Shown here: in pieces, positions 6,011 through 30,174 of the stretch
How the letters are laid out: every line of letters starts with the position of its first letter
Position numbering within the stretch: position 1 is the first letter of the stretch
Source of the DNA: a virus
Taxonomy: Duplodnaviria > Heunggongvirae > Uroviricota > Caudoviricetes
Strand: one strand, 5' to 3'
Length of the DNA stretch: 64,000 nt
IMG/VR virus record: IMGVR_UViG_3300014204_000001
Location: 74,011 to 138,010 of that record
The notes under the pieces: model-generated
What the model saw: only the letters and a program-made list of their open reading frames with translations
Told to the model about the DNA's origin: nothing
Database searches by the model: none
Position numbers and translations under genes: made by a program

Positions 6011-6205
6011 TTAGCCACGTTCTGCCTCCTCCTCGACTGGCTCGTATGCACATGGGCGGTCGTTGCATATCGCCACAGTGTAAAGTATGCGGCTATCGTC
6101 GAACTTCAAAACCAAGCGCCCCTCGCTCTCGCGCACTGATAAGACTGTGGCGATTTTCCCGTTGGCTCTGCGTCGCCACCGGCTCCCGATGCGCGGGCTA
6201 GCCAC
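6011..6205 (-). CDS. hypothetical small protein (~64 aa)
   Basis: GTG start 6-7 nt after GAGGAGG RBS. Confidence 0.45.
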   Translation of the reverse strand: MASPRIGSRWRRRANGKIATVLSVRESEGRLVLKFDDSRILYTVAICNDRPCAYEPVEEEAERG

Positions 6206-6512
6206 GTTCCACCTCCTCAACTGCTTCCCGCAGCTTAGTCATTTCGCGATAGAGATTCGCCATAGGTGTGTCAGGTTCACGGCTTGCGTACTCGTCCAAC
6301 AATTCCTTCGCGCGCCTCACCACACGCGCGTACAATTCTCCCGACTTTAGCTTGGCTTCATGTTCCGATTGTTTACCCTCTTTGGTCGTGAAATAGCCAC
6401 CAGCATCTTCATCGCCGGCCCGGTGATCTCCGCGGTGCCCCGCCTCGCGCTCGCACCGGCCCCAGCCAACGCGAATCGCTGCGCACCTTGCTCGCTGCTT
6501 ACTCATGCTCAT
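6198..6512 (-). CDS. hypothetical protein (~104 aa), first gene of operon 3
   Basis: ATG 6512 preceded by ACGGAGG RBS; immediately downstream of terminator 6546-6580. Confidence 0.5.
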   Translation of the reverse strand: MSMSKQRARCAAIRVGWGRCEREAGHRGDHRAGDEDAGGYFTTKEGKQSEHEAKLKSGELYARVVRRAKELLDEYASREPDTPMANLYREMTKLREAVEEVERG

Positions 6513-6545
6513 TGTTTTGCCTCCGTTAAGTGTCTCCTCTGGTAC

Positions 6546-6580
6546 CAAAAAGAAGCGGCCAATAAGGCACCGCTTCTTTG
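6546..6580 (-). terminator. rho-independent terminator (minus strand)
   Basis: A-run 6546-6550 on + then hairpin gaagcgg...ccgcttc; downstream of 6594-6887. Confidence 0.6.
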
Positions 6581-6593
6581 TTACACCCCATCA

Positions 6594-6887
6594 CTAGTCG
6601 TGTAGAGCCTCCTCGGCTTGAGCTAGAAGTGCCACGGCTAGCTCCTCTAGCGCGTCGTCAGCCTCGTCCCATCCGACGGGAGCATCCGGGTACGCATTTG
6701 CGAAGAGATGCTTTGATTCGCGCGCTTTCTTCGCCGCCTCCTTGAACGCCTCGACCTCTCCGGCACGGCGGGCGGTCTTCACTGCAGCATCTACACGCTT
6801 CGCCAAGTCGCGTACCGCTTCCCTTCGATCATCTCCTGGTCCAAACGCGAAGACCAGGCGCTCAACCTCTTCCGCTATTGCGTACAT
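6594..6887 (-). CDS. hypothetical acidic helical protein (~97 aa)
   Basis: start MYAIAEEVERL with TGATG overlap onto upstream stop. Confidence 0.5.
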   Translation of the reverse strand: MYAIAEEVERLVFAFGPGDDRREAVRDLAKRVDAAVKTARRAGEVEAFKEAAKKARESKHLFANAYPDAPVGWDEADDALEELAVALLAQAEEALHD

Positions 6888-7201
6888 CACTTCTCCTGCG
6901 ACGCACGGATGGCGGCACGAAGCGGAATTGTGGGGCACCACTCGGGGTGCTCGCCGTTGACCGATGCTCCACAGAATACACACTGACCTGAATGCATGCT
7001 GTGACCTAGTGCCTCCTCACACGCCTTCAGCAGTTGCGGCGCAGCAGCGAACAAGCGAGCCAACTTCTCACTTGGTTCGCGCGTGACTGGATCGACTACG
7101 CAACGGGCCACATCGTTGCCATGCTCATCGCATACGCAGAACTTGTCGTAGCACTTACCAGTCTGGCCGGACTCATAGAATTTGCGTGCTATGAACTTCA
7201 T
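6887..7201 (-). CDS. hypothetical Cys-rich protein (104 aa)
   Basis: CYDKFCVCDEHG ... CVFCGASVNGEHPEWC metal-binding-like spacing. Confidence 0.5.
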   Translation of the reverse strand: MKFIARKFYESGQTGKCYDKFCVCDEHGNDVARCVVDPVTREPSEKLARLFAAAPQLLKACEEALGHSMHSGQCVFCGASVNGEHPEWCPTIPLRAAIRASQEK

Positions 7202-7455
7202 AGATTCTCCTGCGCCGCCTGGATAATGGGCGCTGAACTGAATGTGATTTCGAGCCGCGCCTTGTCCTCCTCGTTATCTGTAGTGAGTCCCTTGCATGGA
7301 ATATTGCGCGCCATGTAGTTGAGCATCTTCAACGATGCCACCACCAGTGCGGCTTGTGTCTCTTCTAGCTTCTTTACGCGGGCATACAGCATTGGGGCGC
7401 AATTAGTGCAATACGGTGTGCGGATGTTCGGGGTGCAGTAGCACATCGTTATCAC
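7198..7455 (-). CDS. hypothetical Cys-rich protein (85 aa)
   Basis: MCYCTPNIRTPYCTNC; ATGA overlap. Confidence 0.5.
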   Translation of the reverse strand: MITMCYCTPNIRTPYCTNCAPMLYARVKKLEETQAALVVASLKMLNYMARNIPCKGLTTDNEEDKARLEITFSSAPIIQAAQENL

Positions 7456-7700
7456 CTCTCCACGGTCTTGAGGACTTCTTCCACCAGGCGCAGCGCCTTC
7501 TCCGCTTTCTTCCTCGGGATGCCGCCTTCAACGTCGCGCTGCAGCTGTGCCAGACACTGCTTCAAGCGTTCGCATACCGCCATGTCCGACAGACGGTTCT
7601 TGTTGCGCTCTTCTGAGCATTTCATGCAGAACGTCCCCTCCCCCAGGATCCATACCAACGGATTCGCCTCTTGTTTGCACTGACCACAGCGAGTCGTCAT
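7452..7700 (-). CDS. hypothetical zinc-ribbon-like protein (~82 aa)
   Basis: MTTRCGQCKQE...FCMKCSEE; ATGA overlap with 7697-7957. Confidence 0.5.
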   Translation of the reverse strand: MTTRCGQCKQEANPLVWILGEGTFCMKCSEERNKNRLSDMAVCERLKQCLAQLQRDVEGGIPRKKAEKALRLVEEVLKTVER

Positions 7701-7957
7701 CTCGATATCTTCTCCGTACGCGTACACTTGGTTTGAGTCTGCTGGAGCGTTTCCAGCTTCCAGGCAAAGCCTGCCAACAGGGAGACACACGCTAGGATGA
7801 TGAGGACATAGGTTCTCGAGGAGACAGAGCTCTCGGCGGGAATCCTCGGGAATCCGCCTCGATAACGCCTCAACTCATCTACGCAGTGCTCACACACCGC
7901 CAGAGGCTGAGGGCTTCCGTGCTCGAATACGTGGTCGCATGTAGGACACTTATACAT
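7697..7957 (-). CDS. hypothetical membrane-anchored zinc-ribbon protein (86 aa)
   Basis: CPTCDHV...CEHC then hydrophobic LIILACVSLLAGFAW. Confidence 0.5.
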   Translation of the reverse strand: MYKCPTCDHVFEHGSPQPLAVCEHCVDELRRYRGGFPRIPAESSVSSRTYVLIILACVSLLAGFAWKLETLQQTQTKCTRTEKISR

Positions 7958-8009
7958 GGCGCTCCTTTTCGTGGTTGGTTCGCTACGTTGCCTCTCCTTC
8001 TACCTCTTT

Positions 8010-8333
8010 TCAAGAGTAATCGGAGCAGCGGACACGGTTGCGCAAGTACGCATCGCGGTCGAGCCAGTAACCTGGGCCGTAACAGCACTTCCCATCTTTG
8101 GCGTGGGCGCTGTAGCCATAGTTGCAGTAGGTACACCGCGTGAGTAATAGACAGTCAGCGCCGATCTCGACGTCGGTTCCGTTGAGCTGGCGCGCTACAC
8201 AGGTACCACAGCCGACGCTCACGATGGTCACGAAGCGGCGCTGATAGATCGCGTTGAAATACGCTGCCTGGTCTTCCGGCAAGAGGGTCTCAGGAACAGG
8301 ATGGGTCAGGTGCACGGCGTTAATGACGGTCAT
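8010..8333 (-). CDS. array family member B1 (variant tail with 20-aa extension)
   Basis: C-term CTYCNYGYSAHAKDGKCCYGPGYWLDRDAY...; start MTVINAV overlapping B2 tail. Confidence 0.55.
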   Translation of the reverse strand: MTVINAVHLTHPVPETLLPEDQAAYFNAIYQRRFVTIVSVGCGTCVARQLNGTDVEIGADCLLLTRCTYCNYGYSAHAKDGKCCYGPGYWLDRDAYLRNRVRCSDYS

Positions 8334-8587
8334 AGTCCCCGGGCCCGTATAGGCACTTCCCGCCGGCGGCGCGTACGTCTCTCGGCTGACCGCAGTTGGC
8401 ACGGCGCAGGACGGGGTGATCCTCGAGAATGTGTAAACGCGCACGAGGAGGCTTCATGCCAGTGACGGCGGCTCGCGCACTCTGGCCCGCCCAGCTCACA
8501 CACAATATCGCCCACCTGTATTTGCTGCGCCTCGTACTCGGCTTGTTCGTACACCTTACCCAAAAGGCTCCCAGCTCGTAGGCTCAT
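8320..8587 (-). pseudogene. array family member B2, frame-disrupted
   Basis: N-half MSLRAGSLLGKVYEQAEYEAQQIQVGDIVCELGG in frame of track ORF 8330-8647; C-half ...ANCGQPRDVRAAGGKCLYGPGDYDRH* in frame of 8320-8505. Confidence 0.45.
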
Positions 8588-8808
8588 ACGGCGTGAGCGC
8601 CGCTTCCCCGCCTGCAGTGCTTGCAGAGGAGAAGCGTCAGCGTCCACCTGGGCGCTTCGTACAGGTTGCCATCGAACATCTTTACGACGTAATGGCCCGG
8701 CTTCGTCGCGGGTTCATCGGCGAGGGTCACCTGGTCGCGCCCTTGAGGCAGGCCCAGCATGGTGCACAGGTCCCCGGGCACGTAATCGGAGTAGTAGATA
8801 TCGGTCAT
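8584..8808 (-). CDS. array family member B3, truncated (lacks GKCLYGP tail)
   Basis: ends ...LLLCKHCRRGSGAHAV*; start MTDIYYSDYVPGDL by ATGA overlap. Confidence 0.45.
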   Translation of the reverse strand: MTDIYYSDYVPGDLCTMLGLPQGRDQVTLADEPATKPGHYVVKMFDGNLYEAPRWTLTLLLCKHCRRGSGAHAV

Positions 8809-9014
8809 TGCTTCTCTGCCTTCATTGCCAGACACTTCTGTCGCATTCCCTCGCAGCAGAAGCCACCGGCGAGCACCATACGGCCACAAAACTCACAAGG
8901 CTTGAGCGTAGCTTCGATCTCTTTACAAAGCTCCCAGAACTCCCGACGTCGTGCTGCGCCAATCTTGCATTCACGAGTATGTCCGCGTTCGCGCTTACAC
9001 TCGGTACAGTTCAT
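8805..9014 (-). CDS. zinc-ribbon protein (~69 aa), not an array family member
   Basis: MNCTECKRERGHTRECK...CEFCGRMVLAGGFCCEGMRQKC; ATGA overlaps on both sides. Confidence 0.5.
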   Translation of the reverse strand: MNCTECKRERGHTRECKIGAARRREFWELCKEIEATLKPCEFCGRMVLAGGFCCEGMRQKCLAMKAEKQ

Positions 9015-9286
9015 TCGGCTTGTCCCTGCCAGTTTCCTGGGCCATAAAGGCACTTCCCGTCTTGGGCATGGGCGCTGTAGCCGTAGCCACAACGCCTACA
9101 GAGTATTACCCACACGTCGCACTTGGGGACCTCCCAAACCTTGGTTCCTTCTCCGCAAGGCCACTCTATAAAACAGTAATAGAGGGACACCTCAACTACC
9201 TCTCCCAGCCCATCGCGAAATGTGGAGGCCACAATATCTCCGACAACCACATCTGGCGGCGGGAGCATCAGTAGCGTATGCGGCAT
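9011..9286 (-). CDS. array family member B5 (first gene of operon 2)
   Basis: C-term CRRCGYGYSAHAQDGKCLYGPGNWQGQAE; ATG with CAGGAGG RBS just downstream of terminator. Confidence 0.7.
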   Translation of the reverse strand: MPHTLLMLPPPDVVVGDIVASTFRDGLGEVVEVSLYYCFIEWPCGEGTKVWEVPKCDVWVILCRRCGYGYSAHAQDGKCLYGPGNWQGQAE

Positions 9287-9321
9287 TGCACCTCCTGTCT
9301 AACATATACCCCTCTCATACC

Positions 9322-9352
9322 AAAAAGAAACGCCCATTGAGTGGGCGTTTCC
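9322..9352 (-). terminator. rho-independent terminator (minus strand)
   Basis: A-run 9322-9326 then hairpin gaaacgccca...tgggcgtttc. Confidence 0.6.
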
Positions 9353-9360
9353 TTGACTAC

Positions 9361-9594
9361 TCATTCGACCTCCCACTCACCAGGGCCGTAGAGGCACTTC
9401 CCACCGCTGGTGTGTGCGTGAAACCGCTGGCGACAATTCTTGCAGCTAAGGATTTTCATAGCCCCATGGGGCACCGTGACGCAGACGCCGTCGGTTCTGC
9501 GCATAACGCACCTGCCAGACACGTCAAGGCCTAGGAAGATGCCCTTGATAGGGGGATAGCTGCCGATCTGCACGTGATCGAAGACTTCTAGCAT
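9361..9594 (-). CDS. array family member B6
   Basis: C-term CKNCRQRFHAHTSGGKCLYGPGEWEVE; start MLEVFDHV (alternative embedded start at 9627). Confidence 0.6.
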   Translation of the reverse strand: MLEVFDHVQIGSYPPIKGIFLGLDVSGRCVMRRTDGVCVTVPHGAMKILSCKNCRQRFHAHTSGGKCLYGPGEWEVE

Positions 9595-9875
9595 GGTGCC
9601 TCCCATTCTCCAGGACCATAGATACACTTGTGGCCCTCAGCGTGGGCGCTCAGCGAGTAACCGCAGTTGAGGCAATAGATCGTGGTCAGGGTCCAGCTTG
9701 GAACGGTGTTGCGTTGTCCATCAACGCGCCGCACAACACAAGTAGAGCCGTAGCACTCTTCGACCACGGCACGGTACCTGCCCTGAAGATAGTCTCGAAC
9801 TGTCACCATATCGCCAGGTACTTGCGGGGAGAAGAGGGGCCCACCCCAATCGCCGATATCAAGGTCTTCGGACAT
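9588..9875 (-). CDS. array family member B7
   Basis: C-term CLNCGYSLSAHAEGHKCIYGPGEWEAPC; start MSEDLDIGDWGG. Confidence 0.6.
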   Translation of the reverse strand: MSEDLDIGDWGGPLFSPQVPGDMVTVRDYLQGRYRAVVEECYGSTCVVRRVDGQRNTVPSWTLTTIYCLNCGYSLSAHAEGHKCIYGPGEWEAPC

Positions 9876-10131
9876 CGTAGTATCCCCAGTTCCCTGGACC
9901 GTAGAGGCACTTCCCGTTAACAGCGTGTACCGAGCGTGCGTAGCCGCAGTTTGGACAAACAACCACGTCGTGATAGGGGCGCGAGTGCGTTCGATAGTGT
10001 CCTTCGGATGTCCACACGATGTACGAGTCAGGACGTATCTCGGTGACTACGCCTAATTGAGCATCGTAGGTGGCCACGACATCGCCGACAACAGGCTCTA
10101 TGTCGTCGCGGATGTGCATTAGCACGCCCAT
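9859..10131 (-). CDS. array family member B8
   Basis: C-term CPNCGYARSVHAVNGKCLYGPGNWGYYDVRRP; start MGVLMHIRDD or MHIRDD (TAATG overlap). Confidence 0.6.
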   Translation of the reverse strand: MGVLMHIRDDIEPVVGDVVATYDAQLGVVTEIRPDSYIVWTSEGHYRTHSRPYHDVVVCPNCGYARSVHAVNGKCLYGPGNWGYYDVRRP

Positions 10132-10382
10132 TGCGCCTCCCAGTTTCCAGGACCGTAGAGGCACTTACCCTCTGTGGTATGCACGGTGCGCACGTAACCG
10201 CAGTTTTGACAGATGACTACGGTAAGGTAGGGGCGATTGTAGTTGTGGTAACTTCCGTCAAAGGTCTCCACAACGTACTCGTAGTAGTGCTGCTCATAAT
10301 TGGGTTGTTTCTCGATGATTCTGCCTCGTCGGTGATCAAAGGTGTATACGACATCCCCAACAACAGGATCTAGCAGGTTCAC
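10119..10382 (-). CDS. array family member B9
   Basis: C-term CQNCGYVRTVHTTEGKCLYGPGNWEAQWAC; GTG start 1-nt overlap with B10 stop. Confidence 0.6.
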   Translation of the reverse strand: MNLLDPVVGDVVYTFDHRRGRIIEKQPNYEQHYYEYVVETFDGSYHNYNRPYLTVVICQNCGYVRTVHTTEGKCLYGPGNWEAQWAC

Positions 10383-10600
10383 TACTCCTCCCAATTCCCC
10401 GGACCATAGAGACACTTCCCCTCAGCGGTGTGCGCCGTGTATCCGTAGCCGCACTGAGTGCAGCAAACGATGCGCAGCTCGTGAGGCCGGAAAGAGCCAA
10501 TATAATTGGCGCTCATGTTTACGCGTACATAACCAGAGGTGGTGTAATCGATCACCGTCACATGCCGGCGAGGATCATGGTCTACACCTTGCATTATCAC
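10382..10600 (-). CDS. array family member B10
   Basis: C-term CTQCGYGYTAHTAEGKCLYGPGNWEE; GTGA overlap start. Confidence 0.6.
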   Translation of the reverse strand: MIMQGVDHDPRRHVTVIDYTTSGYVRVNMSANYIGSFRPHELRIVCCTQCGYGYTAHTAEGKCLYGPGNWEE

Positions 10601-10854
10601 ACAGCCTCCCAGTTTCCAGGTCCATAGAGGCACTTCAGATCCTTAGTGTGCGCGCTGCGTCCGTAGCCGCAATGCTTACAGAGGATAAGGGAGTGCACGC
10701 TCAAGTGCGGCAAGATACTCTGACGATCTTCGTAGGCCACCTGGTAGTAGGTCATGAGATCAGAGTCCGCTGCCTCTACTGCGGTGACGATTCCCAGGTG
10801 CCGGCCGCTTATGCAATCGAAGCAGATGAGATCTCCGACGTAGATATCGATCAC
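10597..10854 (-). CDS. array family member B11
   Basis: C-term CKHCGYGRSAHTKDLKCLYGPGNWEAV; GTGA overlap start VIDIYVGDLICFD. Confidence 0.6.
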   Translation of the reverse strand: MIDIYVGDLICFDCISGRHLGIVTAVEAADSDLMTYYQVAYEDRQSILPHLSVHSLILCKHCGYGRSAHTKDLKCLYGPGNWEAV

Positions 10855-11099
10855 GGAGTTTCCCAGTTTCCAGGTCCATAGAGGCACTTCCCTTCTTCGG
10901 TGTGCGCACTGCGGCCGTAGCCACACTGTTTACAGGGGACTACGGAGCGCACGCTCCAACGGGATATGAAGACCTGGAGACCTTTGTGCGCCACCCGAAA
11001 GTAGTTAATATAATCGGATGACACCTCAGTGATGACCCCCGTGTGCTGGAGACCCTGGTGATCGAAATGGACGAGATCTCCAACGCAGACGCGGGTCAC
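10851..11099 (-). CDS. array family member B12
   Basis: C-term CKQCGYGRSAHTEEGKCLYGPGNWETP; GTGA overlap start VTRVCVGDLV. Confidence 0.6.
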   Translation of the reverse strand: MTRVCVGDLVHFDHQGLQHTGVITEVSSDYINYFRVAHKGLQVFISRWSVRSVVPCKQCGYGRSAHTEEGKCLYGPGNWETP

Positions 11100-11362
11100 G
11101 TGACCTCCCAGTTTCCAGGTCCATAGAGGCACTTCCCTTCCTCGGTGTGCGCAGCAAGCATGTGGTCACAGTTGGCACAGCGCACAACCAGCAGCGATTC
11201 TACAGGTACGTCATTTTCATCGCCGCTAGGCCACCGCACCCGATAAGGCGTAAAGGTTGGGGACAACACTGCGCCATCGTAGTCCCGAAACTGTGAGCGC
11301 GATACTACCTTGCCTACAGGTCCGCCGGGAAAAAGGCGCACTAATGTTCCGGGCTCTATCAC
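11096..11362 (-). CDS. array family member B13
   Basis: C-term CANCDHMLAAHTEEGKCLYGPGNWEVT; GTGA overlap start VIEPGTLVRL. Confidence 0.6.
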   Translation of the reverse strand: MIEPGTLVRLFPGGPVGKVVSRSQFRDYDGAVLSPTFTPYRVRWPSGDENDVPVESLLVVRCANCDHMLAAHTEEGKCLYGPGNWEVT

Positions 11363-11616
11363 GACACCCCCCAGTTTCCAGGGCCATAGAGGCACTTGCC
11401 CTCTTCGGTGTGCGCGGACTTGCCTTGCTTGCAGTTGACGCAGCGGCGCATATAGAGACTCGAGGACATGAACGTGTAAATGACGCCGCTCTGGCTGCGC
11501 ACGTGATACAGACCGTCTGGGTCACGCCAGATCACGTGGAACGTCTCAGTGGAAATGCGTTCCGCGCCGTTCGCAACTAGATACGGCGACACCAAATCGC
11601 CAGGGAATAGCGTCAC
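11359..11616 (-). CDS. array family member B14
   Basis: C-term CVNCKQGKSAHTEEGKCLYGPGNWGVS; GTGA overlap start VTLFPGDLV. Confidence 0.6.
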   Translation of the reverse strand: MTLFPGDLVSPYLVANGAERISTETFHVIWRDPDGLYHVRSQSGVIYTFMSSSLYMRRCVNCKQGKSAHTEEGKCLYGPGNWGVS

Positions 11617-11876
11617 GAGACCTCCCAGTTTCCTGGGCCATAAAGGCACTTCCCTTCTTCGGTGTGCGCCTGGATATCGTAGCCACAGTAAGTACACAGC
11701 ACAGGTTTCAAACAACTCGCGGGGCAATCATCCTCCTGCCCATCAGGCCACCGCACACGGCATACGGTGTACGCAGTCGTGCGGTGAAATTGGACGCTGT
11801 CACGTACCGTTAGGCTGCCTATGACTAGGCCTATCCGTTTCTCTGCTCCAAGACGCACCAGTGTTCCCTTCTCCAT
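11613..11876 (-). CDS. array family member B15
   Basis: C-term CTYCGYDIQAHTEEGKCLYGPGNWEVS; start MEKGTLVRLG by TGATG overlap. Confidence 0.6.
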   Translation of the reverse strand: MEKGTLVRLGAEKRIGLVIGSLTVRDSVQFHRTTAYTVCRVRWPDGQEDDCPASCLKPVLCTYCGYDIQAHTEEGKCLYGPGNWEVS

Positions 11877-12121
11877 CAGGGCGTCTCCCAGTTTCCAGGA
11901 CCGTAGAGGCACTTCCCTTCTTCGGTGTGAGCGCTGCGGCCATGGTGACAGTTTCGGCAACAACCACGTCGAGTGGATCGTTTCGACGCCGTTGGGCATG
12001 CGCACGCGACTCACGGAAAAGTAGTTTGCGGCTACTGGGACTTCAGGGTGGTTGTCGATAACAGTAGCGGCTACGAGGTCGCCTACTTCGACACCTGCAT
12101 TTGCAGCATGAACGTGTCCAT
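11876..12121 (-). pseudogene. array family member B16, frame-disrupted, first array gene of operon 1
   Basis: ATG overlaps stop of 643-aa gene (TGATG), but in-frame product is only MDTFMLQMQVSK*; N-domain ...GVEVGDLVAATVIDNHPEV... and tail ...CCRNCHHGRSAHTEEGKCLYGPGNWETP* lie in two other frames (manual translation). Confidence 0.4.
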
Positions 12122-14052
12122 CAAGGACTTACTCCTTCCTGCAGCCAGCGCCGGCGCCGAGAGACGCTGCGGCGCAAACAAAGAGGCGACTCCGCGTACT
12201 TCGCGTAGCCGTGCTGCAAGGCGTAAGACTTCCCCAGGTCCTCGAGGTGACGCAGCACCCCCTGCTCGGTGCGGCCCGGTAGCTTCTCGAGGAGCTGTGT
12301 CCACTCGTCACGCGCCAGGCGGTGTGCACCGGCTGGACGAGCGAAGAGAAACGCGGTAATGGCGGTATCTTCGTACTGCGTGAAGCGGCCAATATGTGAC
12401 TGCTTGCCCTCCTTGTACCGCAAAAGGCGGGCGCCGTAGTGTTGCTCGAAGTGCAGCTTTTGGAAGCGCTTTCTGTCGAGGGCGCTCACCTCGCGCAGCG
12501 CCCACTCCAGGAAGTGAGGGGCCCAAGGAAACGACGCCTCGCCGCCTTCTACGGCATTCACCAGCTTGTTGATTCCCTGAGCCGTCCAGAACACCGTTTC
12601 GCCAAGGCGTACAGCCAGGCCCTTGCGGCGCTGGGGATGGGCAGCAGGGCCAGTGACCGGGAACGGCGTGGAAACGTAGTTCTGGTTCTTGCGCTGGATC
12701 AAGGTGATGAGGAATTCTTGCCCGCCCGCGTCCACGTATTTCAGCTGCACTGCCTTCTTCTTGGCGTTGGGCGCCGCCTTTCTTGAGGGAAGCCTCTTCA
12801 AGGCAAAGGCGAGACTGCGAGCGCTCTTCTTCGCGTGCTGGATCTTGTTGGCGACAGCGAAGGTGGAGAGGAGCTCGTAGGGAATATCCAGCGTTTCCCG
12901 CCACTCCCAGCCCTGCGCCTCCACGAGCTCTTTGAGGGAGCTGGGGCGCCGTCCCAGATACTGGTTCTCAGTGAGCCTGGCGAACGCCTCGCGCACCTGA
13001 GATCCCAGCAGCCACCAGTCGCTGTGGCCAGGGTCGTCGAAGGGAGTGAAGATAGAGCTTTGCCGGCCATCGCGGCGGCGTAGCAGCATCACCCGGCCGA
13101 AATCGACAAGCAATGCCTCGCCAAGCCCTGTGGTCTCCACACGTGCCACGCCCTCTTCAGGAAGTACACAGGAGAGCAGGTAGCGCAGTTCGCAGAGCGC
13201 GGGACTGCGCTGGTTCTCGGGCCATAGGCGCCGAAACTGCGGCGTGTAGACGATCCGGCGAGACTCCGTTCCGTTGATACGGTTAGGCCACAGCAGGGAG
13301 GTGTAGCGCCGCACCCAGCGGTTATGCTCACAGAGGGCGCAGGGCACGCCCTTGACGTGCTTGGAGGGGCAGAGACCCAGCTTGAGCTGCTGGTGCTTAG
13401 CTGCAACGGGGCCAAGGCTGCGCTGCATGGTGCGGTCTAGATCTCGCCTGAACCCCTTGTTAGCGAGCAGCGAGAGCAGGTGGGCATCGAAGCGCTGCTC
13501 GTCGAGCTCATCTTCTTGGCCAAAGTAGAAGGGCCGGTCCAGGGAGTCAGGGAGCGCCGCCGTCCAGTTCTCGTCGAAACGCTTGAGTAGCAGGGCGAAG
13601 GCATAGTCGTACTCAGCTACCAGGTCATCCCTGAGCACCTGGAGGAGCTGACGCGCAAGAAGGCGCACAGGGGAGGACTGCCACGTCGTCAACGCCGTTC
13701 GCAGGAACATGGGCCACTGGACCAGCAGCAGCACGTCCACGTCGTTCCAGTGAGGAGGCTCCTGCTGCTGCGAGATAGCAGCGTGGTGCCGGCGCTGAGC
13801 CCACAACGTTCCGCCGAACCAGGTGCTGTCCTCGACCCGTCGCTCCCGTGGCACAAGGTAGTAGGCGAGGCCGTGCTGCCCCAACGTCTCCTTCGTTCCG
13901 TCGTGAACAGGGAAGGGCGCGTTGGGGGCACGGGCCCGTTGTCCGAGGCGAGCGGCGATGTCTTTGAGCATAGCGTTCAAAACACTTTGCTGGGGCACAG
14001 TGTGCCAGTTAAGACGCAACAGCCTGACTTCACTCGCGTTTAGCCCTATCAC
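12121..14052 (-). CDS. hypothetical 643-aa protein, leading gene of array operon 1
   Basis: long uninterrupted ORF; stop overlaps array start; N-terminal 27 codons lie inside inverted-repeat element. Confidence 0.6.
   Translation of the reverse strand: MIGLNASEVRLLRLNWHTVPQQSVLNAMLKDIAARLGQRARAPNAPFPVHDGTKETLGQHGLAYYLVPRERRVEDSTWFGGTLWAQRRHHAAISQQQEPPHWNDVDVLLLVQWPMFLRTALTTWQSSPVRLLARQLLQVLRDDLVAEYDYAFALLLKRFDENWTAALPDSLDRPFYFGQEDELDEQRFDAHLLSLLANKGFRRDLDRTMQRSLGPVAAKHQQLKLGLCPSKHVKGVPCALCEHNRWVRRYTSLLWPNRINGTESRRIVYTPQFRRLWPENQRSPALCELRYLLSCVLPEEGVARVETTGLGEALLVDFGRVMLLRRRDGRQSSIFTPFDDPGHSDWWLLGSQVREAFARLTENQYLGRRPSSLKELVEAQGWEWRETLDIPYELLSTFAVANKIQHAKKSARSLAFALKRLPSRKAAPNAKKKAVQLKYVDAGGQEFLITLIQRKNQNYVSTPFPVTGPAAHPQRRKGLAVRLGETVFWTAQGINKLVNAVEGGEASFPWAPHFLEWALREVSALDRKRFQKLHFEQHYGARLLRYKEGKQSHIGRFTQYEDTAITAFLFARPAGAHRLARDEWTQLLEKLPGRTEQGVLRHLEDLGKSYALQHGYAKYAESPLCLRRSVSRRRRWLQEGVSP
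13971..13990. repeat. outer inverted repeat, left arm (20 bp perfect: tagcgttcaaaacactttgc)
   Basis: exact reverse complement at 14636-14655. Confidence 0.8.
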
Positions 14053-15744: not shown

Positions 15745-16035
15745 ATGGCAGACCCTGATTACTACCAGACGCTTCGGCGCCTGGTGGACGTGAACAAGAT
15801 CCTGGCGCTAATTGAAGCAACGCCTAGTTCGCAGGATCCTCGACAGCCTGAGCTGCGAGAGGAGTCGGCGAAGCTGATGTTGATGCTGATGCGCCCGCTG
15901 TATCGAGATCGGCGCGTTTGTGCGGCGTGCGGACGCGGAAAGGCCGGCCAGAAGTACGCGCTGTGCGTCGAGTGTCGGGACGGCTGCGGGATGAGTGCCG
16001 CAGATTGCTGCTCACATTGGACGCCGCTCAAGTAA
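15745..16035 (+). CDS. hypothetical Cys-rich protein (96 aa)
   Basis: ATG after GTAGGAGGG RBS; CAACGRGKAGQKYALCVECRDGCGMSAADCC. Confidence 0.55.
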   Translation: MADPDYYQTLRRLVDVNKILALIEATPSSQDPRQPELREESAKLMLMLMRPLYRDRRVCAACGRGKAGQKYALCVECRDGCGMSAADCCSHWTPLK

Positions 16036-16076
16036 TCTCCGAAGTGCACCTTCACTCGCAAGTAGCAGGAGAGCAC

Positions 16077-17117
16077 ATGCGTTACGCAACGCTGATGCTT
16101 CTGGCAGTGCTGTTCATGGCTTGCACGGGCTCCGAGGCGCCGGCAGGCAGCAACGAAGAGCAGGTGGCGGGGCCGCAGGGGGCCAAGGGAGATCCGGGCA
16201 TTGCCTGGAAGGGCGCCTGGACCGAGGGCACTACCTACGCGCCCAATGATGTCGTTTCGGACAACGGGTCGACGTACATTGCCCTCCAGCCCAACCGCGG
16301 CACCACGGACGTCACGGAGTTCTGGGCGCCGTTTGCGATGCAGGGCGCTGTCGGTCCTCAGGGACCTCAGGGACTGAAGGGCGCTCAGGGATCTGCAGGG
16401 CTCACAGGGCCTCAGGGATTCCAGGGCCTGAAGGGTGACAAGGGTGATACCGGCGCTGCCGGACCCCAGGGCGTACCCGGAATCGCTGGCGCCATGGGGC
16501 CTCAGGGCCTGAAGGGTAACACGGGTAATACCGGCGCCACGGGGCCTCAGGGCCCGAAGGGTGACACTGGTGCCGCGGGGCCCCAGGGCCTGAAGGGTAA
16601 TACGGGTAACACTGGTGCCGTAGGCCCCGCAGGCATCATGGGACCCCAAGGCCCTCAGGGGCCGCAAGGCGACCCCGGCGAGACGCTGCCAGCGGCGTAC
16701 GCCATGGACGGGACGGGGCGAATAGTGGCGCCAGTGCTGGGTATATACAATACGCTCATCACCCTCACCGAAACAGTCGGGGCCACGAAAGTCGCCATTA
16801 CACGCGACCGGACAACTGGGGAGCCTACTATGCTTCACTCCCTTCTCTATTTCACAGGTCCCAGCTGCACCGGAGCGGCCTATATCAACACGTGCGTGGA
16901 GAGTGTATTCCGTGTAGCGACGACACCGCAAATCACGTATGACGTGTACGTGATGACCGGCGCCGCAGCGCAAAGCATCGGGTATCACTCTACACGAACT
17001 CGGGGTAGTGATAACTGCCAACCGTATGCCCTGGGTGGCACTGTTACGGCCTTCCCGGCGGTCAAGGTGGGATCCGTCTACAACTTGACGCCACCGCTGC
17101 GGTATTACTTCCCATAA
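16077..17117 (+). CDS. collagen-like (Gly-X-Y repeat) putative lipoprotein, 346 aa
   Basis: signal/lipobox-like MRYATLMLLAVLFMAC; about 60 uninterrupted G-X-Y triplets (GPQGPQGLKGAQGSAGLTGPQG...); C-terminal globular domain. Confidence 0.7.
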   Translation: MRYATLMLLAVLFMACTGSEAPAGSNEEQVAGPQGAKGDPGIAWKGAWTEGTTYAPNDVVSDNGSTYIALQPNRGTTDVTEFWAPFAMQGAVGPQGPQGLKGAQGSAGLTGPQGFQGLKGDKGDTGAAGPQGVPGIAGAMGPQGLKGNTGNTGATGPQGPKGDTGAAGPQGLKGNTGNTGAVGPAGIMGPQGPQGPQGDPGETLPAAYAMDGTGRIVAPVLGIYNTLITLTETVGATKVAITRDRTTGEPTMLHSLLYFTGPSCTGAAYINTCVESVFRVATTPQITYDVYVMTGAAAQSIGYHSTRTRGSDNCQPYALGGTVTAFPAVKVGSVYNLTPPLRYYFP

Positions 17118-19075: not shown

Positions 19076-19101
19076 ACGGCCCCCCGGGGGCCGCTCTTTT
19101 T
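19076..19101. terminator. hairpin terminator between convergent genes
   Basis: ggcccccgggggcc stem followed by ctctttttt. Confidence 0.65.
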
Positions 19102-19772
19102 TAGCACCCGTACTGCGCCAAAGCCGCCTTGTAGCCGCGTAGGCAAGCCCACTTCTGGAAGTTTGGGTGGTTCTGTACACGGTTCCAGAGAGTATTGAGG
19201 TCCTGCATCTTGCGCAGGTCGCCGCCGCGGTCTGGGTGATGCCGCATGGCCTCTGCGTGGTAGCGCTGCTTGGCCTCGGCCTTGGTCTTCACGCCCTTAA
19301 GCCAGTCGATGTTCTTGGGGTCCGTAGGACCGTTTTCGCGCACAGGCGGCGCTTCTCCAGGGGCGTGGTGTTGGGTATGCGACCGCATTACTGGAGAGAT
19401 GGACGGGCCGAGGTAGGCACCTGTGTACGCCCCAGCACTAGCACCATGCAACCCAAAAAAGGCCGCTGCGCGGAGTGGGGACATGCTTGCGTCATTATCG
19501 CCATAGGCCCCCCAGAGTGCCCCAGGGATTGCGCCAATTGCTGCGCCGATGCCCGCATCGCGGAGTACACGCCCTGGCGTGCCCGGGTGTCCTATGCCTG
19601 CACCCATACCTAGAAGACCGGGAATGAGGGCTGAGTTTAGGACCGCTTCTGTGCGGGACTCCTTCTTCTCGAGCGGCCTGAGTGCCCCGGCCAGCGCCCC
19701 GGGAACCGCGGAGGCTAGGCCGCTAGCTAGTGCGTTGTACGCGATGTCGCGCAGGATGTTATTCGTAGTCAT
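19101..19772 (-). CDS. J-domain (DnaJ-like) protein with Gly/Ala-rich GxxxG N-terminal region
   Basis: C-terminal ...KQRYHAEAMRHHPDRGGDLRKMQDLNTLWNRV contains HPD tripeptide; N-region AIGAIPGALWGAYG... Confidence 0.6.
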   Translation of the reverse strand: MTTNNILRDIAYNALASGLASAVPGALAGALRPLEKKESRTEAVLNSALIPGLLGMGAGIGHPGTPGRVLRDAGIGAAIGAIPGALWGAYGDNDASMSPLRAAAFFGLHGASAGAYTGAYLGPSISPVMRSHTQHHAPGEAPPVRENGPTDPKNIDWLKGVKTKAEAKQRYHAEAMRHHPDRGGDLRKMQDLNTLWNRVQNHPNFQKWACLRGYKAALAQYGC

Positions 19773-21105: not shown

Positions 21106-21117
21106 GGTGGAGGCTAC

Positions 21118-21582
21118 ATGAAGATCATTCGCAATACTTTGTACACTCGCGAGTTGACACCGATGACGGTAACGATGCGGGACATCGATCTGCATCCGCC
21201 GTTCGAGCGAACTGTAAAAGAGTTGTGCCGCCCCGTTCCAGGGCTATTCTTCGTGGTTGAGATTATTGACGCCGAAGACGCGCTCGACGTGACCGCGGCA
21301 ACAAACCTAGCTATGCAGCACTGGCAGGAATGTAATCAAGCCGAGCGAGATATGGCAACACTATATTACTGGGACGAGGCAGCGCTCGCGCAGGTAACTC
21401 CGGGTGGTACGTTGATGGCGACCAAGCCGGCACCATTGACTGTCAAGCAGATCATCTACACCCTGGAGATGCTGGCATACAGCCCTTTATATAGAGGGCA
21501 GCAGATAATCGCTATCGCCCAGGATTTACAGGTGGTACGTATGCAGGGGGGTAAGGCCCAGATCGGAGGAGCGAGTGCCTAA
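21118..21582 (+). CDS. hypothetical protein (154 aa)
   Basis: GGTGGAGG RBS. Confidence 0.55.
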   Translation: MKIIRNTLYTRELTPMTVTMRDIDLHPPFERTVKELCRPVPGLFFVVEIIDAEDALDVTAATNLAMQHWQECNQAERDMATLYYWDEAALAQVTPGGTLMATKPAPLTVKQIIYTLEMLAYSPLYRGQQIIAIAQDLQVVRMQGGKAQIGGASA

Positions 21583-22225
21583 TTGGTGCACCAACCGACT
21601 TACTGTCACTGGCCCAAAGGCGGATATCGCACATTTCGTGGAATTCGCAGCATATAGCTCTGAAAAGTACAATACGGCATTCAGCTTGGCGAAGTTCGTG
21701 CCACCCCCACCCGAAGGTATGCCGGGATACAAGTGGTACGATTGGCGTGTCACCAACTGGGGTACAAAGTGGGACGTGGTGGCCTGTATTGACCACACGC
21801 CTGGACGCGCTATATTCCAGTTCAATTCTGCGTGGAGCCCGCCGGGACCTGTAATCGTCGCGGCGGCGGAGAAGTTCCCGATGCTCGAATTTGAGCACGT
21901 CTACTACGAACGTGGTTGTGACTTCGGTGGCGTGGCTACGTTTTCCGAGGGTATCTGCATTTCGAACATCGAAGAGGGGGCGCTCGAGACTGAGTTGCGC
22001 TGTTACGGCGTCGTGAACAGAAGCTGCGCTACGTGCTGGGAAGACGTCGAGACGACGGAAGTCCACGGCAAGGTATACTGCGACGAGTGCATGGAGAATC
22101 AGTGCGCCTGCTGCGACCACCCGAAGGATGAACACGCGGACGGTGGCAAGTGCCTCTACGAGCCTACGACGTTCATGGCTCTCAAAGACGCTCTGAATAA
22201 CGGTATAAGGAAAGATCCCGACTAA
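21575..22225 (+). CDS. fusion protein: unrelated ~170-aa N-domain + array-type C2HC GKCLY C-terminal block (216 aa)
   Basis: C-term CATCWEDV...CDECMENQCACCDHPKDEHADGGKCLYEPTTFMALKD; N-term MPNWCTNRLTV...NWGTKWD. Confidence 0.65.
   Translation: MPNWCTNRLTVTGPKADIAHFVEFAAYSSEKYNTAFSLAKFVPPPPEGMPGYKWYDWRVTNWGTKWDVVACIDHTPGRAIFQFNSAWSPPGPVIVAAAEKFPMLEFEHVYYERGCDFGGVATFSEGICISNIEEGALETELRCYGVVNRSCATCWEDVETTEVHGKVYCDECMENQCACCDHPKDEHADGGKCLYEPTTFMALKDALNNGIRKDPD
22204..22212 (+). promoter_or_regulatory. GGTATAAGG promoter-like motif (instance 4, inside 3' end of preceding CDS)
   Basis: 30 nt upstream of TTG 22239. Confidence 0.4.
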
Positions 22226-22412: not shown

Positions 22413-22466
22413 GGGCACCTAGGTATAGCAAGAATTACCTAGGTGCCTGTTGACGAGGTCTTTTTT
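22413..22466 (+). terminator. rho-independent terminator
   Basis: 12-bp stem ggcacctaggta...tacctaggtgcc, then gacgaggtc + T6. Confidence 0.65.
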
Positions 22467-22468
22467 GC

Positions 22469-22771
22469 ATGAAGCGTAATGAGCTGGCGGAGGCATTCGC
22501 CGCAGCAGTACGCTCACCGTACAGCCGTGCAAGCAATCTGTGGTATAGCGAAGACAAGGCGTTTTCGTACGCCACGCCAGTGGCAGAAAAATTACCGTGG
22601 GTATACCGTGGTCGGCGCACGGTGTGGGTCACGTCGCAGAAATACTCCCAATCGACCACGATTCACATCAACGCCCTGCTGCAAGCATTCGCAGAAACTC
22701 GTTATCGCGTATTGCGCACAGAGATTGCACCGACAACCCGGGAAGAGTTGATCCGCTTGCTTGAGGAATGA
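22469..22771 (+). CDS. hypothetical protein (100 aa)
   Basis: ORF track. Confidence 0.55.
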   Translation: MKRNELAEAFAAAVRSPYSRASNLWYSEDKAFSYATPVAEKLPWVYRGRRTVWVTSQKYSQSTTIHINALLQAFAETRYRVLRTEIAPTTREELIRLLEE

Positions 22772-24870: not shown

Positions 24871-25203
24871 ATGTTCGATTATTCGAAAGAAACGCTACCT
24901 ACCTGGATAACCGATACACCGGGATGTCGAAACCTAGTCGACGCGGTCACCACCGTACTTTACGAGCTCGTTACGATGGGCGTGACACACCAGTTTCTCG
25001 TGGAAAACGAGCCACGATTTGTGCGCAAACTGATTTTCACGATCATCATTGAACGGGATGAACTCCTCCTGCCTGTTAAAGAGTTCCTGGAAGCGACTCA
25101 AGCCTGGCCCGCCGAACAGAAGGACCACCTGATCTCCGAGATACTGACCGCGATGCCGAAGTGGTCAGAGGCGTACGCCATCCACGGGAAGAGCACTCGG
25201 TGA
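24871..25203 (+). CDS. hypothetical protein (110 aa)
   Basis: ACGGAGG RBS. Confidence 0.55.
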   Translation: MFDYSKETLPTWITDTPGCRNLVDAVTTVLYELVTMGVTHQFLVENEPRFVRKLIFTIIIERDELLLPVKEFLEATQAWPAEQKDHLISEILTAMPKWSEAYAIHGKSTR

Positions 25204-25703
25204 TCCGACTCGTTCTCGGAGACGTCCTCACGGCGAAGACTGACGCGCTCCTGGTCGCGATGGACGGAGATGCTGAAGGCATGGAGGGCAACATCGGACG
25301 TCAACTTCAGCGGAAGATCGGCGAGGAGGCGTGGGAAGACTTGATGGCCCAGTTGATCTTTCCGATGGGTGCTGGCACAGCGCAGATTGCGGAATTCGAG
25401 GGCGTCGCGGAAGTTCAATTCAAGTTCGCCGTATTCGCTGCAGCATTCCTACACGCCACCAATGAAGGAGCGTCGAGCACTCTCAAGGCATCATTAGACC
25501 AATCTCTCAAGCGGGCGCGCGGAGCCGGAGCAAGAAGCATCGCCACTGCGGTACTTACAGGAGGCTGGCGTGTGAACAAAGAGCGTGCAATCGCGCACCT
25601 CGTTGACGTCAGTGATTCCTGTGGCTTGGAGGTTGAGGTGTATTCGCGGGCAAAAGAATACGCCGAGACCCAGAGCTTGTTCCAGGCCTTCGGCGTGAGG
25701 TGA
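25200..25703 (+). CDS. macro-domain-like (ADP-ribose binding/processing) protein
   Basis: GDVLTAKTDALLVAMDG ... SIATAVLTGGWRVNKERAIAHLV resembles macro motifs; GTGA start overlap. Confidence 0.45.
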   Translation: MIRLVLGDVLTAKTDALLVAMDGDAEGMEGNIGRQLQRKIGEEAWEDLMAQLIFPMGAGTAQIAEFEGVAEVQFKFAVFAAAFLHATNEGASSTLKASLDQSLKRARGAGARSIATAVLTGGWRVNKERAIAHLVDVSDSCGLEVEVYSRAKEYAETQSLFQAFGVR

Positions 25704-25738: not shown

Positions 25739-26446
25739 CCTGAAGTTTTCGTAATTTTCAAGGAAGGTCTCGATGTCGTCCTCAGACCCTCCGCGCAAGC
25801 CGGCGCCAAATGTAGTGGGCTTACCGCGACGCGTGTGAAGCGCCATGAGCTCTTGGCGCGTGGGCTCTTGTACGAATGCTGGATCACGGAAACCTTGCCG
25901 AACAGCATCTCGCGCAGTCTGCTCAGCTTCAGCGCGATGAAAAATAGCCGGATCGATACGGCGCAACCGCCGCTCCCGAATAACCTGCTCATTGGCAGCC
26001 ACTACATCGGACGGTGCCACCAGAGAGCTGCGAGCTGGGACTTTCAGGTTCGCCAGGGGGTCGCCCTCTGCGTGATTGAATACAAGCATGTGCCGACGCA
26101 TCGGGTGCGTAGGGTGTGGATCTACAGGTTCTCGGTGCGCCGGTAGCTGGTCTCGGCGCATCGCGAAACCGGTAGCTTCTGGGCCCCGCATGTAGGTCAT
26201 GCGCGGGCGATCTTTCCAGAGGTAAACACCGCTCCCATGCGCTGCAAGTTGAGGCCACAAACCTTCATTCAGTATGCCTCGAACCGATTGGGCGACAGGA
26301 CGATCCTTAGGGAGAACACCGTGGAACAGGTTATCGCCTCCACGCAGGAGCTCCCGCGCACGACGATACTGCTTTACAGCAGTAGGTACATTCGCCAACT
26401 TCTCAAGCGCCGCGGCGCAGCCAGCTTCATAGGCAATACTGCACAT
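25724..26446 (-). CDS. hypothetical protein (240 aa)
   Basis: TAATG overlap with RyR gene stop. Confidence 0.5.
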   Translation of the reverse strand: MCSIAYEAGCAAALEKLANVPTAVKQYRRARELLRGGDNLFHGVLPKDRPVAQSVRGILNEGLWPQLAAHGSGVYLWKDRPRMTYMRGPEATGFAMRRDQLPAHREPVDPHPTHPMRRHMLVFNHAEGDPLANLKVPARSSLVAPSDVVAANEQVIRERRLRRIDPAIFHRAEAEQTARDAVRQGFRDPAFVQEPTRQELMALHTRRGKPTTFGAGLRGGSEDDIETFLENYENFRAGGR

Positions 26447-26832
26447 TAGCTCTCCGGAGGCCATACAGTACGAAGTGCTCGGTATGTACGAAGGACGGCC
26501 TCATCCTTCTTACGCTCATACTCGGGCAGTTCTTCGTAGGACACCAGACACGGGTGTTCTTTTTTGGCCGCGTCCTTAACAGAACCATACTTCCAGCCAT
26601 CTCGGAGCTTGTGACTCACCCACGCCACGTGCGAAGCTGCGCACAGCTTGTCGAAGGGCGTGGCTTCAATGTCCAGTTCATCCCAGAAGCGGATGGAATG
26701 GCACGTAGCCGACTTCTGCCACTCTGGAGCTGTCTGCCAGGGCAGGCCGGGCTCACCGAGCCCGATCACGACATAAGCGTACCACGCTTGGTGGCACGCG
26801 GCGGCCAGGAGCTCTGTGCGGTCGGGGATCAT
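26446..26832 (-). CDS. RyR-domain protein (128 aa)
   Basis: DGWKYGSVKDAAKKEHPCLVSYEELPEYERKKDEAVLRTY matches RyR (PF02026) consensus GWxYGxxRDxxxRxHPCLVxxxELPExEKxxDR. Confidence 0.6.
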   Translation of the reverse strand: MIPDRTELLAAACHQAWYAYVVIGLGEPGLPWQTAPEWQKSATCHSIRFWDELDIEATPFDKLCAASHVAWVSHKLRDGWKYGSVKDAAKKEHPCLVSYEELPEYERKKDEAVLRTYRALRTVWPPES

Positions 26833-27735: not shown

Positions 27736-27930
27736 ATGGCGGTCATCACGCCCGGCATCACAGCAGGCGTTGTAGTCTACGATCAGCTGAACCTTTATAG
27801 TGTCATGCCCTGCGTAGACTTCCTGGAGCATATCTGGGAGCCCTACGTCAAGGAACACGGAATCCCTGAGTTCGGAAAGATCCCGCCGGAGTGGTGGGCA
27901 CTCTGTGGTGCGGACTCTACTCCGCATTGA
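27736..27930 (+). CDS. hypothetical protein (64 aa)
   Basis: CAGGAGG RBS. Confidence 0.5.
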   Translation: MAVITPGITAGVVVYDQLNLYSVMPCVDFLEHIWEPYVKEHGIPEFGKIPPEWWALCGADSTPH

Positions 27931-27944
27931 TATGGAGAAAGAGC

Positions 27945-28259
27945 ATGTCGCGGAAGATCAAGGTCCTTGTGGTACCCGTAGGCAAGGCCCCCGAGGTTCG
28001 GGAGATCGAGGCTACCCTTGAAGACATGCAGGAGATCGTTGGTGGTTACATTGAGGCGCATCCGCTGGAAGGGTATGTCGACCTTATCTGCAATGAGGAG
28101 GGGTGGCTACGCCACCTACCCGTCAATCGACTAGTCCCATCGGTAGACAAGATCTGCGGTGACTTCTTTGTTGCACGGCGCGACAAAGACGGCGACAACG
28201 TCTCACTCACGGACGCGGATATCGCCAAGTACAGCCAGAAGTTCAGTGCGCTTGCATAG
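27945..28259 (+). CDS. hypothetical protein (104 aa)
   Basis: GGAGAAAGAG RBS then ATG. Confidence 0.5.
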   Translation: MSRKIKVLVVPVGKAPEVREIEATLEDMQEIVGGYIEAHPLEGYVDLICNEEGWLRHLPVNRLVPSVDKICGDFFVARRDKDGDNVSLTDADIAKYSQKFSALA

Positions 28260-29439: not shown

Positions 29440-30174
29440 ATGCTAATTCAGATCGAATCCGACTGGCACCTCGAACTGCACCGCGATAACGGGCGGAACC
29501 TCATCGCAGCACTGGATCCTGCGGGCGTCGACGTACTGGTGTTGGCGGGAGATATCATCTCGGGCCAACGTATGCATCTGATCGAGTACGTATTCAACTT
29601 GTTGACGCTGAAGTATGCGAACGCACATATAGTCTACGTCCCTGGGAATCACGAGTTTTGGAACGGCGAACCTGAGAGCGTGTGGGCTCGTCTCAAGGAG
29701 GTCGAGGCACAGCACCCTGCGCAACTGCATTTCCTACGCAACGAGGTCTTCCCCATCGACGGGAGGAAAATCCTTGGTGGGACGATGTGGTTTCCAAAAA
29801 GGACTTTAGGCAGGGAAATGCTTATGCCAGACTTCGAGCTGATCGCAGGTTTCTGTCCCTGGGTCTACGACGAACACCGGCGCTTCGTCAATATGCTCGA
29901 GAAGAACCTTGGTGAAGGTGACATCGTGCTCACGCACCACATGCCCTCGCCGATGAGCATAGCGCCACGCTTCCAGCAATCGCGGGTCACGGAGTTCTTC
30001 GTGGCGAACCAGGAGGAGCATATCCTGGCACGCAAACCCGCGCTCTGGGTCCACGGTCATACGCACGACACCTTCGACTACACGCTAGGCAGCACGCGCG
30101 TGATCTGCAACCCGTACGGCTATCCGCGCGAGAATTGTCACGATAAACCAAACCGAACCCTTGTGGAGGTCTGA
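29440..30174 (+). CDS. calcineurin-like metallophosphoesterase
   Basis: LAGDIISG, VPGNHEF, LTHHMP, VHGHTHD motif series. Confidence 0.7.
   Translation: MLIQIESDWHLELHRDNGRNLIAALDPAGVDVLVLAGDIISGQRMHLIEYVFNLLTLKYANAHIVYVPGNHEFWNGEPESVWARLKEVEAQHPAQLHFLRNEVFPIDGRKILGGTMWFPKRTLGREMLMPDFELIAGFCPWVYDEHRRFVNMLEKNLGEGDIVLTHHMPSPMSIAPRFQQSRVTEFFVANQEEHILARKPALWVHGHTHDTFDYTLGSTRVICNPYGYPRENCHDKPNRTLVEV

Follow-up and report, generated by a model that had tools for sequence, protein, structure and literature searches.

A phage protein of the DUF1281/Api92 family carries the putative zinc knuckle of a gene array in the same genome

The closest described relative of the protein treated here is Api92 of Yersinia pseudotuberculosis (PDB 2IJR; DUF1281, PF18406), a 282-aa protein whose family is typical of phages, plasmids and integrative and conjugative elements (ICEs), and a DUF1281 gene is listed together with an antirestriction-protein gene in one unique, ICE-like plasmid segment of ~15 kb (PMC10425158). 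The family is widespread, with at least 6,684 matches in the protein collection and at least 569 loci in IMG/VR; we found no functional study of DUF1281/Api92 in the literature, and membership of the family gives no mechanism. A second point of comparison is the classical CCHC knuckle (retroviral nucleocapsid, zf-CCHC), where a CxxC turn is followed by a His and a Cys within ~20–25 residues, often in tandem. Here we describe a 216-aa protein (hereafter the fusion protein) encoded on the plus strand of a 64,000-nucleotide stretch of the Caudoviricetes record IMGVR_UViG_3300014204_000001 (positions 74,011 to 138,010; “the window”). It is a member of the known, uncharacterised DUF1281/Api92 family carrying a previously unannotated zinc mini-domain, which is also the tail of the small proteins encoded by a gene array in the same window.

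The head of the fusion protein bears the invariant MPNWC, NWGTKW and AWSPP of the Api92/DUF1281 family, and the protein sits on a mobile element as other family members do, but Api92 is without zinc modules whereas the fusion protein combines a shorter head with a four-cysteine ribbon and a CCHC knuckle. The knuckle resembles the classical ones in its CxxC turn followed by His and Cys, yet differs from zf-CCHC in its spacing (C-x2-C-x6-H-x4/5-C), in a unique G-K-C-L-[YF]-x-[PAS]-T-x-[FW] signature and in a charge that is not basic. We read the whole as a phage accessory protein made of an Api92/DUF1281-type head, a putative four-cysteine zinc ribbon and a putative CCHC zinc knuckle, laid out as follows:

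21575–22225, plus strand: gene for the Api92-like/zinc ribbon/CCHC-knuckle protein of 216 aa, stop codon included (open-reading frame (ORF) translation, homologues, AlphaFold2)
21575–22009, plus strand: Api92/DUF1281-like alpha+beta domain, residues 1–145, with invariant MPNWC, NWGTKW, AWSPP and E-G-F-G motifs
22025–22090, plus strand: putative four-Cys zinc ribbon, C151-x2-C154-x14-C169-x2-C172 (Cys invariance, structure model)
22103–22174, plus strand: putative CCHC knuckle common with the array, C177-x2-C180-x6-H187-x5-C193-L-Y-x-P-T-x-F200 (hidden Markov model (HMM), shuffling, alignment)
22175–22222, plus strand: short C-terminal helix and tail (MALKDALNNGIRKDPD), not conserved (model, orthologue alignment)

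Architecture of the fusion protein and homology of its knuckle

The ORF opens with GTG at 21575 and closes with TAA at 22223–22225, and its translation is exactly the one quoted in an earlier, sequence-only reading of the window, which it exceeds by 12 residues after “...FMALKD” (ALNNGIRKDPD). That reading took everything ahead of the tail as an unrelated domain of ~170 aa not seen in the array. The head does occur only once in the window and nowhere in the array; it measures ~145 aa, the remainder being the zinc ribbon, and far from being unknown it is recognised by Pfam PF18406 (DUF1281_C) at residues 66–134, well above the gathering score (42.5 bits, cut-off 22.8, E 6.3e-11). An hmmscan at E ≤1 gave PF18406 alone, without PF06924 (DUF1281, the enterobacterial N-terminal model), so that the N-terminal half of the head is related to enterobacterial DUF1281 proteins by structure and motifs only. 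PHROGs 12644 and 20518 also match the protein, both with function unassigned. Across 62 aligned homologues P2, N3, W62, G63, T64, K65, W66, A86, W87 and P89 are invariant and M1, W4, C5, S88 and P90 are at least 90% conserved, and every one of these residues is present here. The AlphaFold2 model built with these 62 homologues is confident (pLDDT 93.3, pTM 0.84, zinc block >90), and its predicted head fold agrees with the Api92 crystal structure 2IJR.

The “extra Cys pairs” remarked on in the sequence-only reading are the two halves of the ribbon, C151-x2-C154 and C169-x2-C172, all four of which are invariant in 13 orthologues. The model places a beta-hairpin (147–150/157–160, pLDDT >90) within it, and no Pfam ribbon model matches the protein by hmmscan at E ≤1. 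Beyond the knuckle, a predicted helix (203–208) leads into a tail in which pLDDT drops to 68 at the end and which varies among orthologues. Four DUF1281 proteins of ~210 aa (P0031, P0033, P0083 and P0112) possess both ribbon CxxC pairs and an acidic tail, with no knuckle, thus ribbon and knuckle are separable additions to the Api92-like head. Each of the two modules is predicted, from its ligands, to bind one zinc ion.

The knuckle itself spans about 24–25 residues and recurs in two minus-strand clusters of small genes elsewhere in the window:

736–4497, minus strand: array cluster A, 14 intact small genes plus fragments, C-x2-C-D-L-P-x-E-D-H-A-x-G-G-K-C-L-Y-x-P-T-S-W, closest to the fusion tail
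8010–12128, minus strand: array cluster B, 13 intact small genes plus fragments, C-x2-C-G-Y-G-x-S-A-H-T-E-E-G-K-C-L-Y-G-P-G-N-W

The array is real: the regular expression C..C.{5,9}H.{2,6}C.[YFW], run over all six frames of the whole window, gave 28 matches, 27 of them on the minus strand in the two clusters and the last in the fusion protein, with nothing elsewhere, and an HMM added ~4 fragmentary or frameshifted copies. The array had been placed ten kilobases away on the opposite strand; the strand is right, and the nearest member ends 9.4 kb away. The modelled cluster B member is a five-strand Tudor/SH3-like barrel followed by the knuckle (pLDDT 90.5, pTM 0.77), its top Foldseek matches are the Tudor domains of 53BP1 and PHF1 (with weak E-values) and it also resembles Hfq/Sm barrels. 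This barrel is absent from the fusion protein, which has the Api92-like head instead, and at 216 aa against 70–100 aa for the array proteins it shares the knuckle module without being an array member.

The likeness of the tails does not reduce to a generic CxxC...H motif, as the sequence-only reading had allowed it might. Run against 1,263 six-frame ORFs, an HMM trained solely on the 27 array tails gave the fusion protein 31.7 bits (E 6e-9) and the top unrelated ORF no more than 9.5 bits. When the four metal ligands were held fixed and the other 24 tail residues permuted, 20,000 shuffles scored 3.9 ± 3.9 bits on average and 27.9 at most, none reaching the 40.3 bits of the isolated real tail. 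Fusion and array tails agree beyond the ligands too: an Ala follows the His, the final Cys is flanked by G-K on its N-terminal and L-Y on its C-terminal side, and a Pro and an aromatic residue occupy +4 and +7, respectively. In the alignment of 39 tails (A3) the fusion knuckle shares 29–54% identity with array tails and the four ligand columns (C177, C180, H187 and C193) are invariant, whilst all eight ligands of ribbon and knuckle, together with F200, are invariant in the 13 full-architecture orthologues. Judged by these sequence comparisons, the fusion knuckle is truly homologous to the array tails.

Homology alone would also arise if an array member had recently passed its tail to the gene through recombination or gene conversion, which would make the fusion a local chimera of no wider meaning. 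There are ~30 donor copies in the genome, and the tail is nearest to cluster A, to which it is up to 62% identical when the 24 residues beginning with the first ligand are compared. At the nucleotide level, however, the fusion tail shares only 43–63% identity with array tails and uses the same codon at ~50% of the conserved residues, which points to old divergence under purifying selection rather than recent conversion. Furthermore, 12 other protein clusters (P0002–P0013), found on different contigs, exhibit the same head–ribbon–knuckle order with all ligands invariant (207–234 aa, 34–43% identity, ~94% coverage), and the closest of them, P0002 (43% identity), comes from a 25 kb contig of a sister phage that keeps the fusion in the same three-gene operon. 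The fusion tail is as close to the array of the sister phage (55% identity) as to its own (mean identity 54% to cluster A, 40% to cluster B), and shares 50% with the sister fusion. Codon-level divergence and the orthologues rule out recent gene conversion, we regard a recent chimera of any kind as very improbable, and the comparison of orthologues indicates that the fusion is a conserved arrangement.

The same tail identities speak to an idea of the sequence-only reading, that the fusion protein may be the ancestral or hub version. As they give no direction, derivation of the array tails from the fusion gene was rejected, and with synonymous sites largely randomised no direction of descent can be read. 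Many other proteins carry the knuckle, the fusion is only a rare sub-architecture within DUF1281, and its tail is equally close to its own and the sister array; the ancestral or hub role is not upheld.

The knuckle as a mobile module of phage-like contigs

The sequence-only reading also proposed that the tail is a transferable module, and this was borne out well beyond the window. An exhaustive HMMER search with a 28-position tail profile against 1.84 billion representatives (E ≤1e-3) recovered 312 representative proteins that carry the knuckle. Of the carriers fetched, 91 bear it at the C-terminus, 46 at the N-terminus and 13 internally, nine have it in tandem, and the non-knuckle parts fell into ~145 clusters unrelated by BLASTP. 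In one protein (P0256) the entire ribbon-plus-knuckle block is attached to another N-domain. By this search and the DNA-pattern scan below, the knuckle is a promiscuous mini-domain restricted to phage-like contigs. It corresponds to nothing consistent in Pfam, PHROGs, NCBIfam, PADLOC or PDB sequences (phrog_1311 matched residues 173–194 at E 0.007 only), and we found no description of such phage knuckle arrays in the literature.

At the DNA level, a 36-bit knuckle pattern gave 13 matches on three IMG/VR contigs, eight of these on one 194 kb contig, and essentially chance-level single matches in 185,579 species genomes; of the latter, L035 scores well by HMM and L036 and L041 weakly. L035, the best knuckle match in the species genomes (5751–6086), is from an Archangium (Myxococcota) metagenome-assembled genome. 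A strict GKCLYGPGNW DNA pattern found nothing in IMG/VR. From word-indexed searches the array family had appeared unique to this genome, an artefact of the word index that was overturned by the exhaustive search and by loci L008, L009 and L012–L014.

At least four phages bear knuckle arrays of 11–30 copies, and in three of these a protein of ~640 aa heads the array. In the window this is:

12121–14052, minus strand: gene for the 643-aa protein at the array head, candidate partner or regulator (orthologues beside arrays)

The 643-aa protein has no Pfam, PHROG or PDB match, and pattern-based scans of IMG/VR and JGI metagenome contigs gave no relatives. The sister phage encodes an orthologue of it (L003, 5591–7429, 48% identity), and the contig of that phage breaks off within an array (L008) that comprises at least 11 knuckle genes. 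In a third phage, a 645-aa orthologue (L009, 3622–5559, 32% identity, E 9e-85) is followed directly by at least 20 small knuckle genes, whose proteins (5430–12377) have an N-terminal knuckle and then a second Cys/His-rich zinc domain, not a Tudor-like barrel. Comparing these with the arrays of the window, the constant part of an array is therefore the knuckle and not the rest of the protein. A fourth large phage contig, the one of 194 kb (IMGVR_UViG_3300045051_000909, L012–L014), holds at least 26 knuckle ORFs in the ~29 kb fetched, with no DUF1281 or 643-aa homologue in those parts. The 643-aa protein and its orthologues also have an invariant C-x9-C-x2-C (C228, C238 and C241), an invariant H232 and a conserved C-terminal region.

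In the mechanical ORF list of the window, array proteins appear to begin “MPLWTWKLGG...”, which is the +2-frame reading of the DNA for the conserved KCLYGPGNWE tail of the preceding gene (736–12128, minus strand). The true starts lie downstream of it, which gives array proteins of ~70–90 aa, as in the public calls P0121–P0133. Several copies are split between frames or truncated (11876–12128, 2791–3150 and 8330–8889, minus strand); at 11876–12010 the reading frame covers just the 44-aa tail, and the barrel part is read in a different one. These copies may be pseudogenes, sequencing errors or cases of frameshifting.

Within DUF1281 the knuckle-bearing form is a minority, found in 12 of the best 120 matches and in one of the best 80 IMG/VR DUF1281 loci (1.2 Mb), none of which has another knuckle gene within 10 kb. 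A second architecture, P0115, consists of DUF1281, an acidic linker and the knuckle, with no ribbon. Elsewhere, a 222-aa ORF of another phage (P0151; L136, 6001–6669) encodes two knuckles and then a fragment of the DNA polymerase A motif, TGRLSSxxPNLxNIP (Pfam E 2e-5), and sits in a Prim-Pol/VapE replication module. As it stands alone, a polymerase with inserted knuckles was ruled out.

Candidate roles of the knuckle

The reading we prefer is that the knuckle may be a constant, zinc-stabilised tag for protein–protein docking, which would bring unlike heads, here an Api92-like domain and diversified Tudor-like barrels, to one common partner, which would be a host factor or else the conserved ~640-aa protein at the array head. 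On this reading the fusion protein would not be the ancestor of the docking system but one of its clients, conserved and present in single copy. The sequence-only reading had likewise suggested that the protein may anchor a different effector to the same partner, which is plausible on indirect evidence. Heads that are unlike, a knuckle that is their sole constant element and arrays that lie beside the ~640-aa protein would all favour such a model, which we hold tentatively, at somewhat under an even chance.

Several points weigh against it. The shared docking partner is a candidate, and zinc binding is predicted from the invariance of the ligands alone. In the four more distant phages L001, L004, L005 and L006, neither a second knuckle gene nor a homologue of the 643-aa protein lies within 10 kb of the fusion orthologue, so any common partner need not be the 643-aa protein or the array. 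“Effector”, as used for the Api92/DUF1281 head, is a label and not a finding. Finally, the conserved L, Y/F, P, T and F/W could be just the hydrophobic mini-core of a 25-residue zinc fold, so their conservation alone is no proof of a binding surface in common.

This last point leads to a different account, where the knuckle is a structural zinc clasp only, stabilising very small phage proteins or the ends of domains: there would be no shared partner, the fusion and array proteins would act independently, and they would have their tail in common because each inherited the stabilising element from a shared ancestor. Apart from the ligands, conservation indeed falls mostly on hydrophobic or aromatic residues (L, Y/F, P, F/W), as in the core of a mini zinc fold. 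The occurrence of the knuckle at either protein end or in tandem, its confident packing against the rest of the protein by AlphaFold2 in both contexts (pTM 0.84 and 0.77) and the distant orthologues lacking a second knuckle gene nearby all fit a clasp as well. For a pure stabiliser, however, it would be surprising that G-K ahead of the final Cys and a Thr at +5 persist in hundreds of otherwise unrelated proteins, that nothing else is conserved in arrays of 11–30 paralogues in four phages, and that the module is confined to phage-like contigs. Recurrent, independent fusion to DUF1281, as in P0115, also speaks for a function, and we judge a clasp alone to be somewhat unlikely.

CCHC knuckles commonly bind single-stranded nucleic acids, and the phage knuckle may be another of this kind, akin to those of retroviral nucleocapsid or of replication proteins; in that case the fusion protein would be an Api92-like factor directed to DNA or RNA, and the array would encode Tudor/Sm-like nucleic-acid binders. 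In agreement with this, P0151 joins two knuckles to the polymerase motif fragment within its replication module, the array N-domain also resembles Hfq/Sm barrels, and the neighbourhoods of the fusion in other phages include an SNF2 helicase, a ligase and a dCMP deaminase. The net charge of the knuckle is not conserved, however (−5 to +8, mean −0.2), and the zinc block of the fusion has a pI of 4.6 (4.8 for the whole protein). The spacing C-x2-C-x6-H-x5-C also departs from the nucleocapsid C-x2-C-x4-H-x4-C, and neither the fusion protein nor 15 other carriers match Pfam zf-CCHC at E ≤1. We consider a nucleic-acid-binding role quite improbable.

Returning to the docking tag, an analogy is offered by viral adaptor families such as the poxvirus ankyrin-PRANC/F-box proteins, which similarly form large, lineage-specific arrays of paralogues with a diversified binding domain and a short, constant terminal module, and where the constant module likewise recurs on non-array proteins. 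There is no relation in sequence or fold, and the docking partner of PRANC is Skp1. To our knowledge bacteria have no ubiquitin system, therefore an analogous hub would be a different machine. Extending the docking model, we suggest as an unlikely but specific possibility that the phage runs a modular recruitment system, where dozens of Tudor-like binders and a few single-copy heads plug through the knuckle into one hub that redirects or destroys host proteins, including defence proteins. Either the ~640-aa protein or some machine of the host, for instance an AAA+ protease or the transcription apparatus, would serve as this hub.

Operon, neighbourhood and significance

The fusion gene lies between two genes that accompany it in the sister phage, and it is preceded by a ribosome-binding motif:

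21115–21582, plus strand: upstream 155-aa gene, function unassigned, 8 nt overlap between its stop and the GTG start of the fusion gene; same operon
21565–21569, plus strand: Shine–Dalgarno sequence GGAGG, 5 nt 5′ of the GTG start (sequence read)
22469–22771, plus strand: downstream 100-aa gene of the “WVTSxKYSxxTTxH” family, conserved beside the fusion

MPNWC opens every homologue without variation, so the GTG start at 21575 is secure, and the GGAGG supports it over the start of the public gene call (P0001, on a JGI contig of 179,282 bp). That call begins 21 codons later and is otherwise 100% identical over its 195 aa, a truncation of 21 residues which loses the invariant N-terminus of the Api92/DUF1281 family. 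The upstream 155-aa protein matched no Pfam family and shares 47% identity with the product of L003 9583–10020, in the equivalent position before the sister-phage fusion, and the downstream 100-aa protein shares 48% identity with that of L003 10611–10928. The family of the latter also occurs fused to a knuckle in the metagenomic protein P0162 (E 2e-10), a Rosetta-stone-type hint that products of the operon may work with the knuckle system. The sister-phage contig also encodes HTH_Crp_2 and DUF3846 genes nearby.

Between a 55-aa ORF and the 100-aa gene is a perfect 12 bp inverted repeat (22414–22447, GGCACCTAGGTA ... TACCTAGGTGCC, with a 10-nt loop), which may be an operator; a T-run starts 13 nt past the stem, thus the repeat is not a canonical terminator. 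Other accessory genes of the window encode a DUF3846 protein (27891–28259, plus strand, E 6e-28), a RyR-domain protein (26446–26832, minus strand), a calcineurin-like phosphoesterase (29440–30174, plus strand) and a collagen-repeat protein with CBM_5_12 (15918–17117, plus strand), and DUF3846 is again found near the fusion orthologues in L003 and L006. Two domains called by eye, a J-domain at 19101–19772 and a macro domain at 25161–25703, were not confirmed by Pfam. A 1,048-aa protein (54534–57680, minus strand) contains an internal LAGLIDADG_3 domain (residues 423–499), which suggests an intein or a homing-endonuclease insertion. A 656-aa protein with four DUF4215 repeats (E 1e-32) and Laminin_G_3 (47084–49054, minus strand) is probably a fibre or receptor-binding protein, and this protein and the Archangium match are weak hints of the host lineage.

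The interest of this locus lies less in the single gene than in the array tail as a mobile, phage-specific module, which offers a handle for two blocks of viral dark matter. Defining the knuckle would annotate hundreds of dark-matter proteins, together with arrays of 11–30 paralogues in several large phages. The knuckle-bearing sub-family of DUF1281 is a handle of its own, since the binding target of the knuckle would show where the Api92-like head acts. If the recruitment system proposed above is real, it would be a bacterial-virus counterpart of the adaptor families of eukaryotic viruses.

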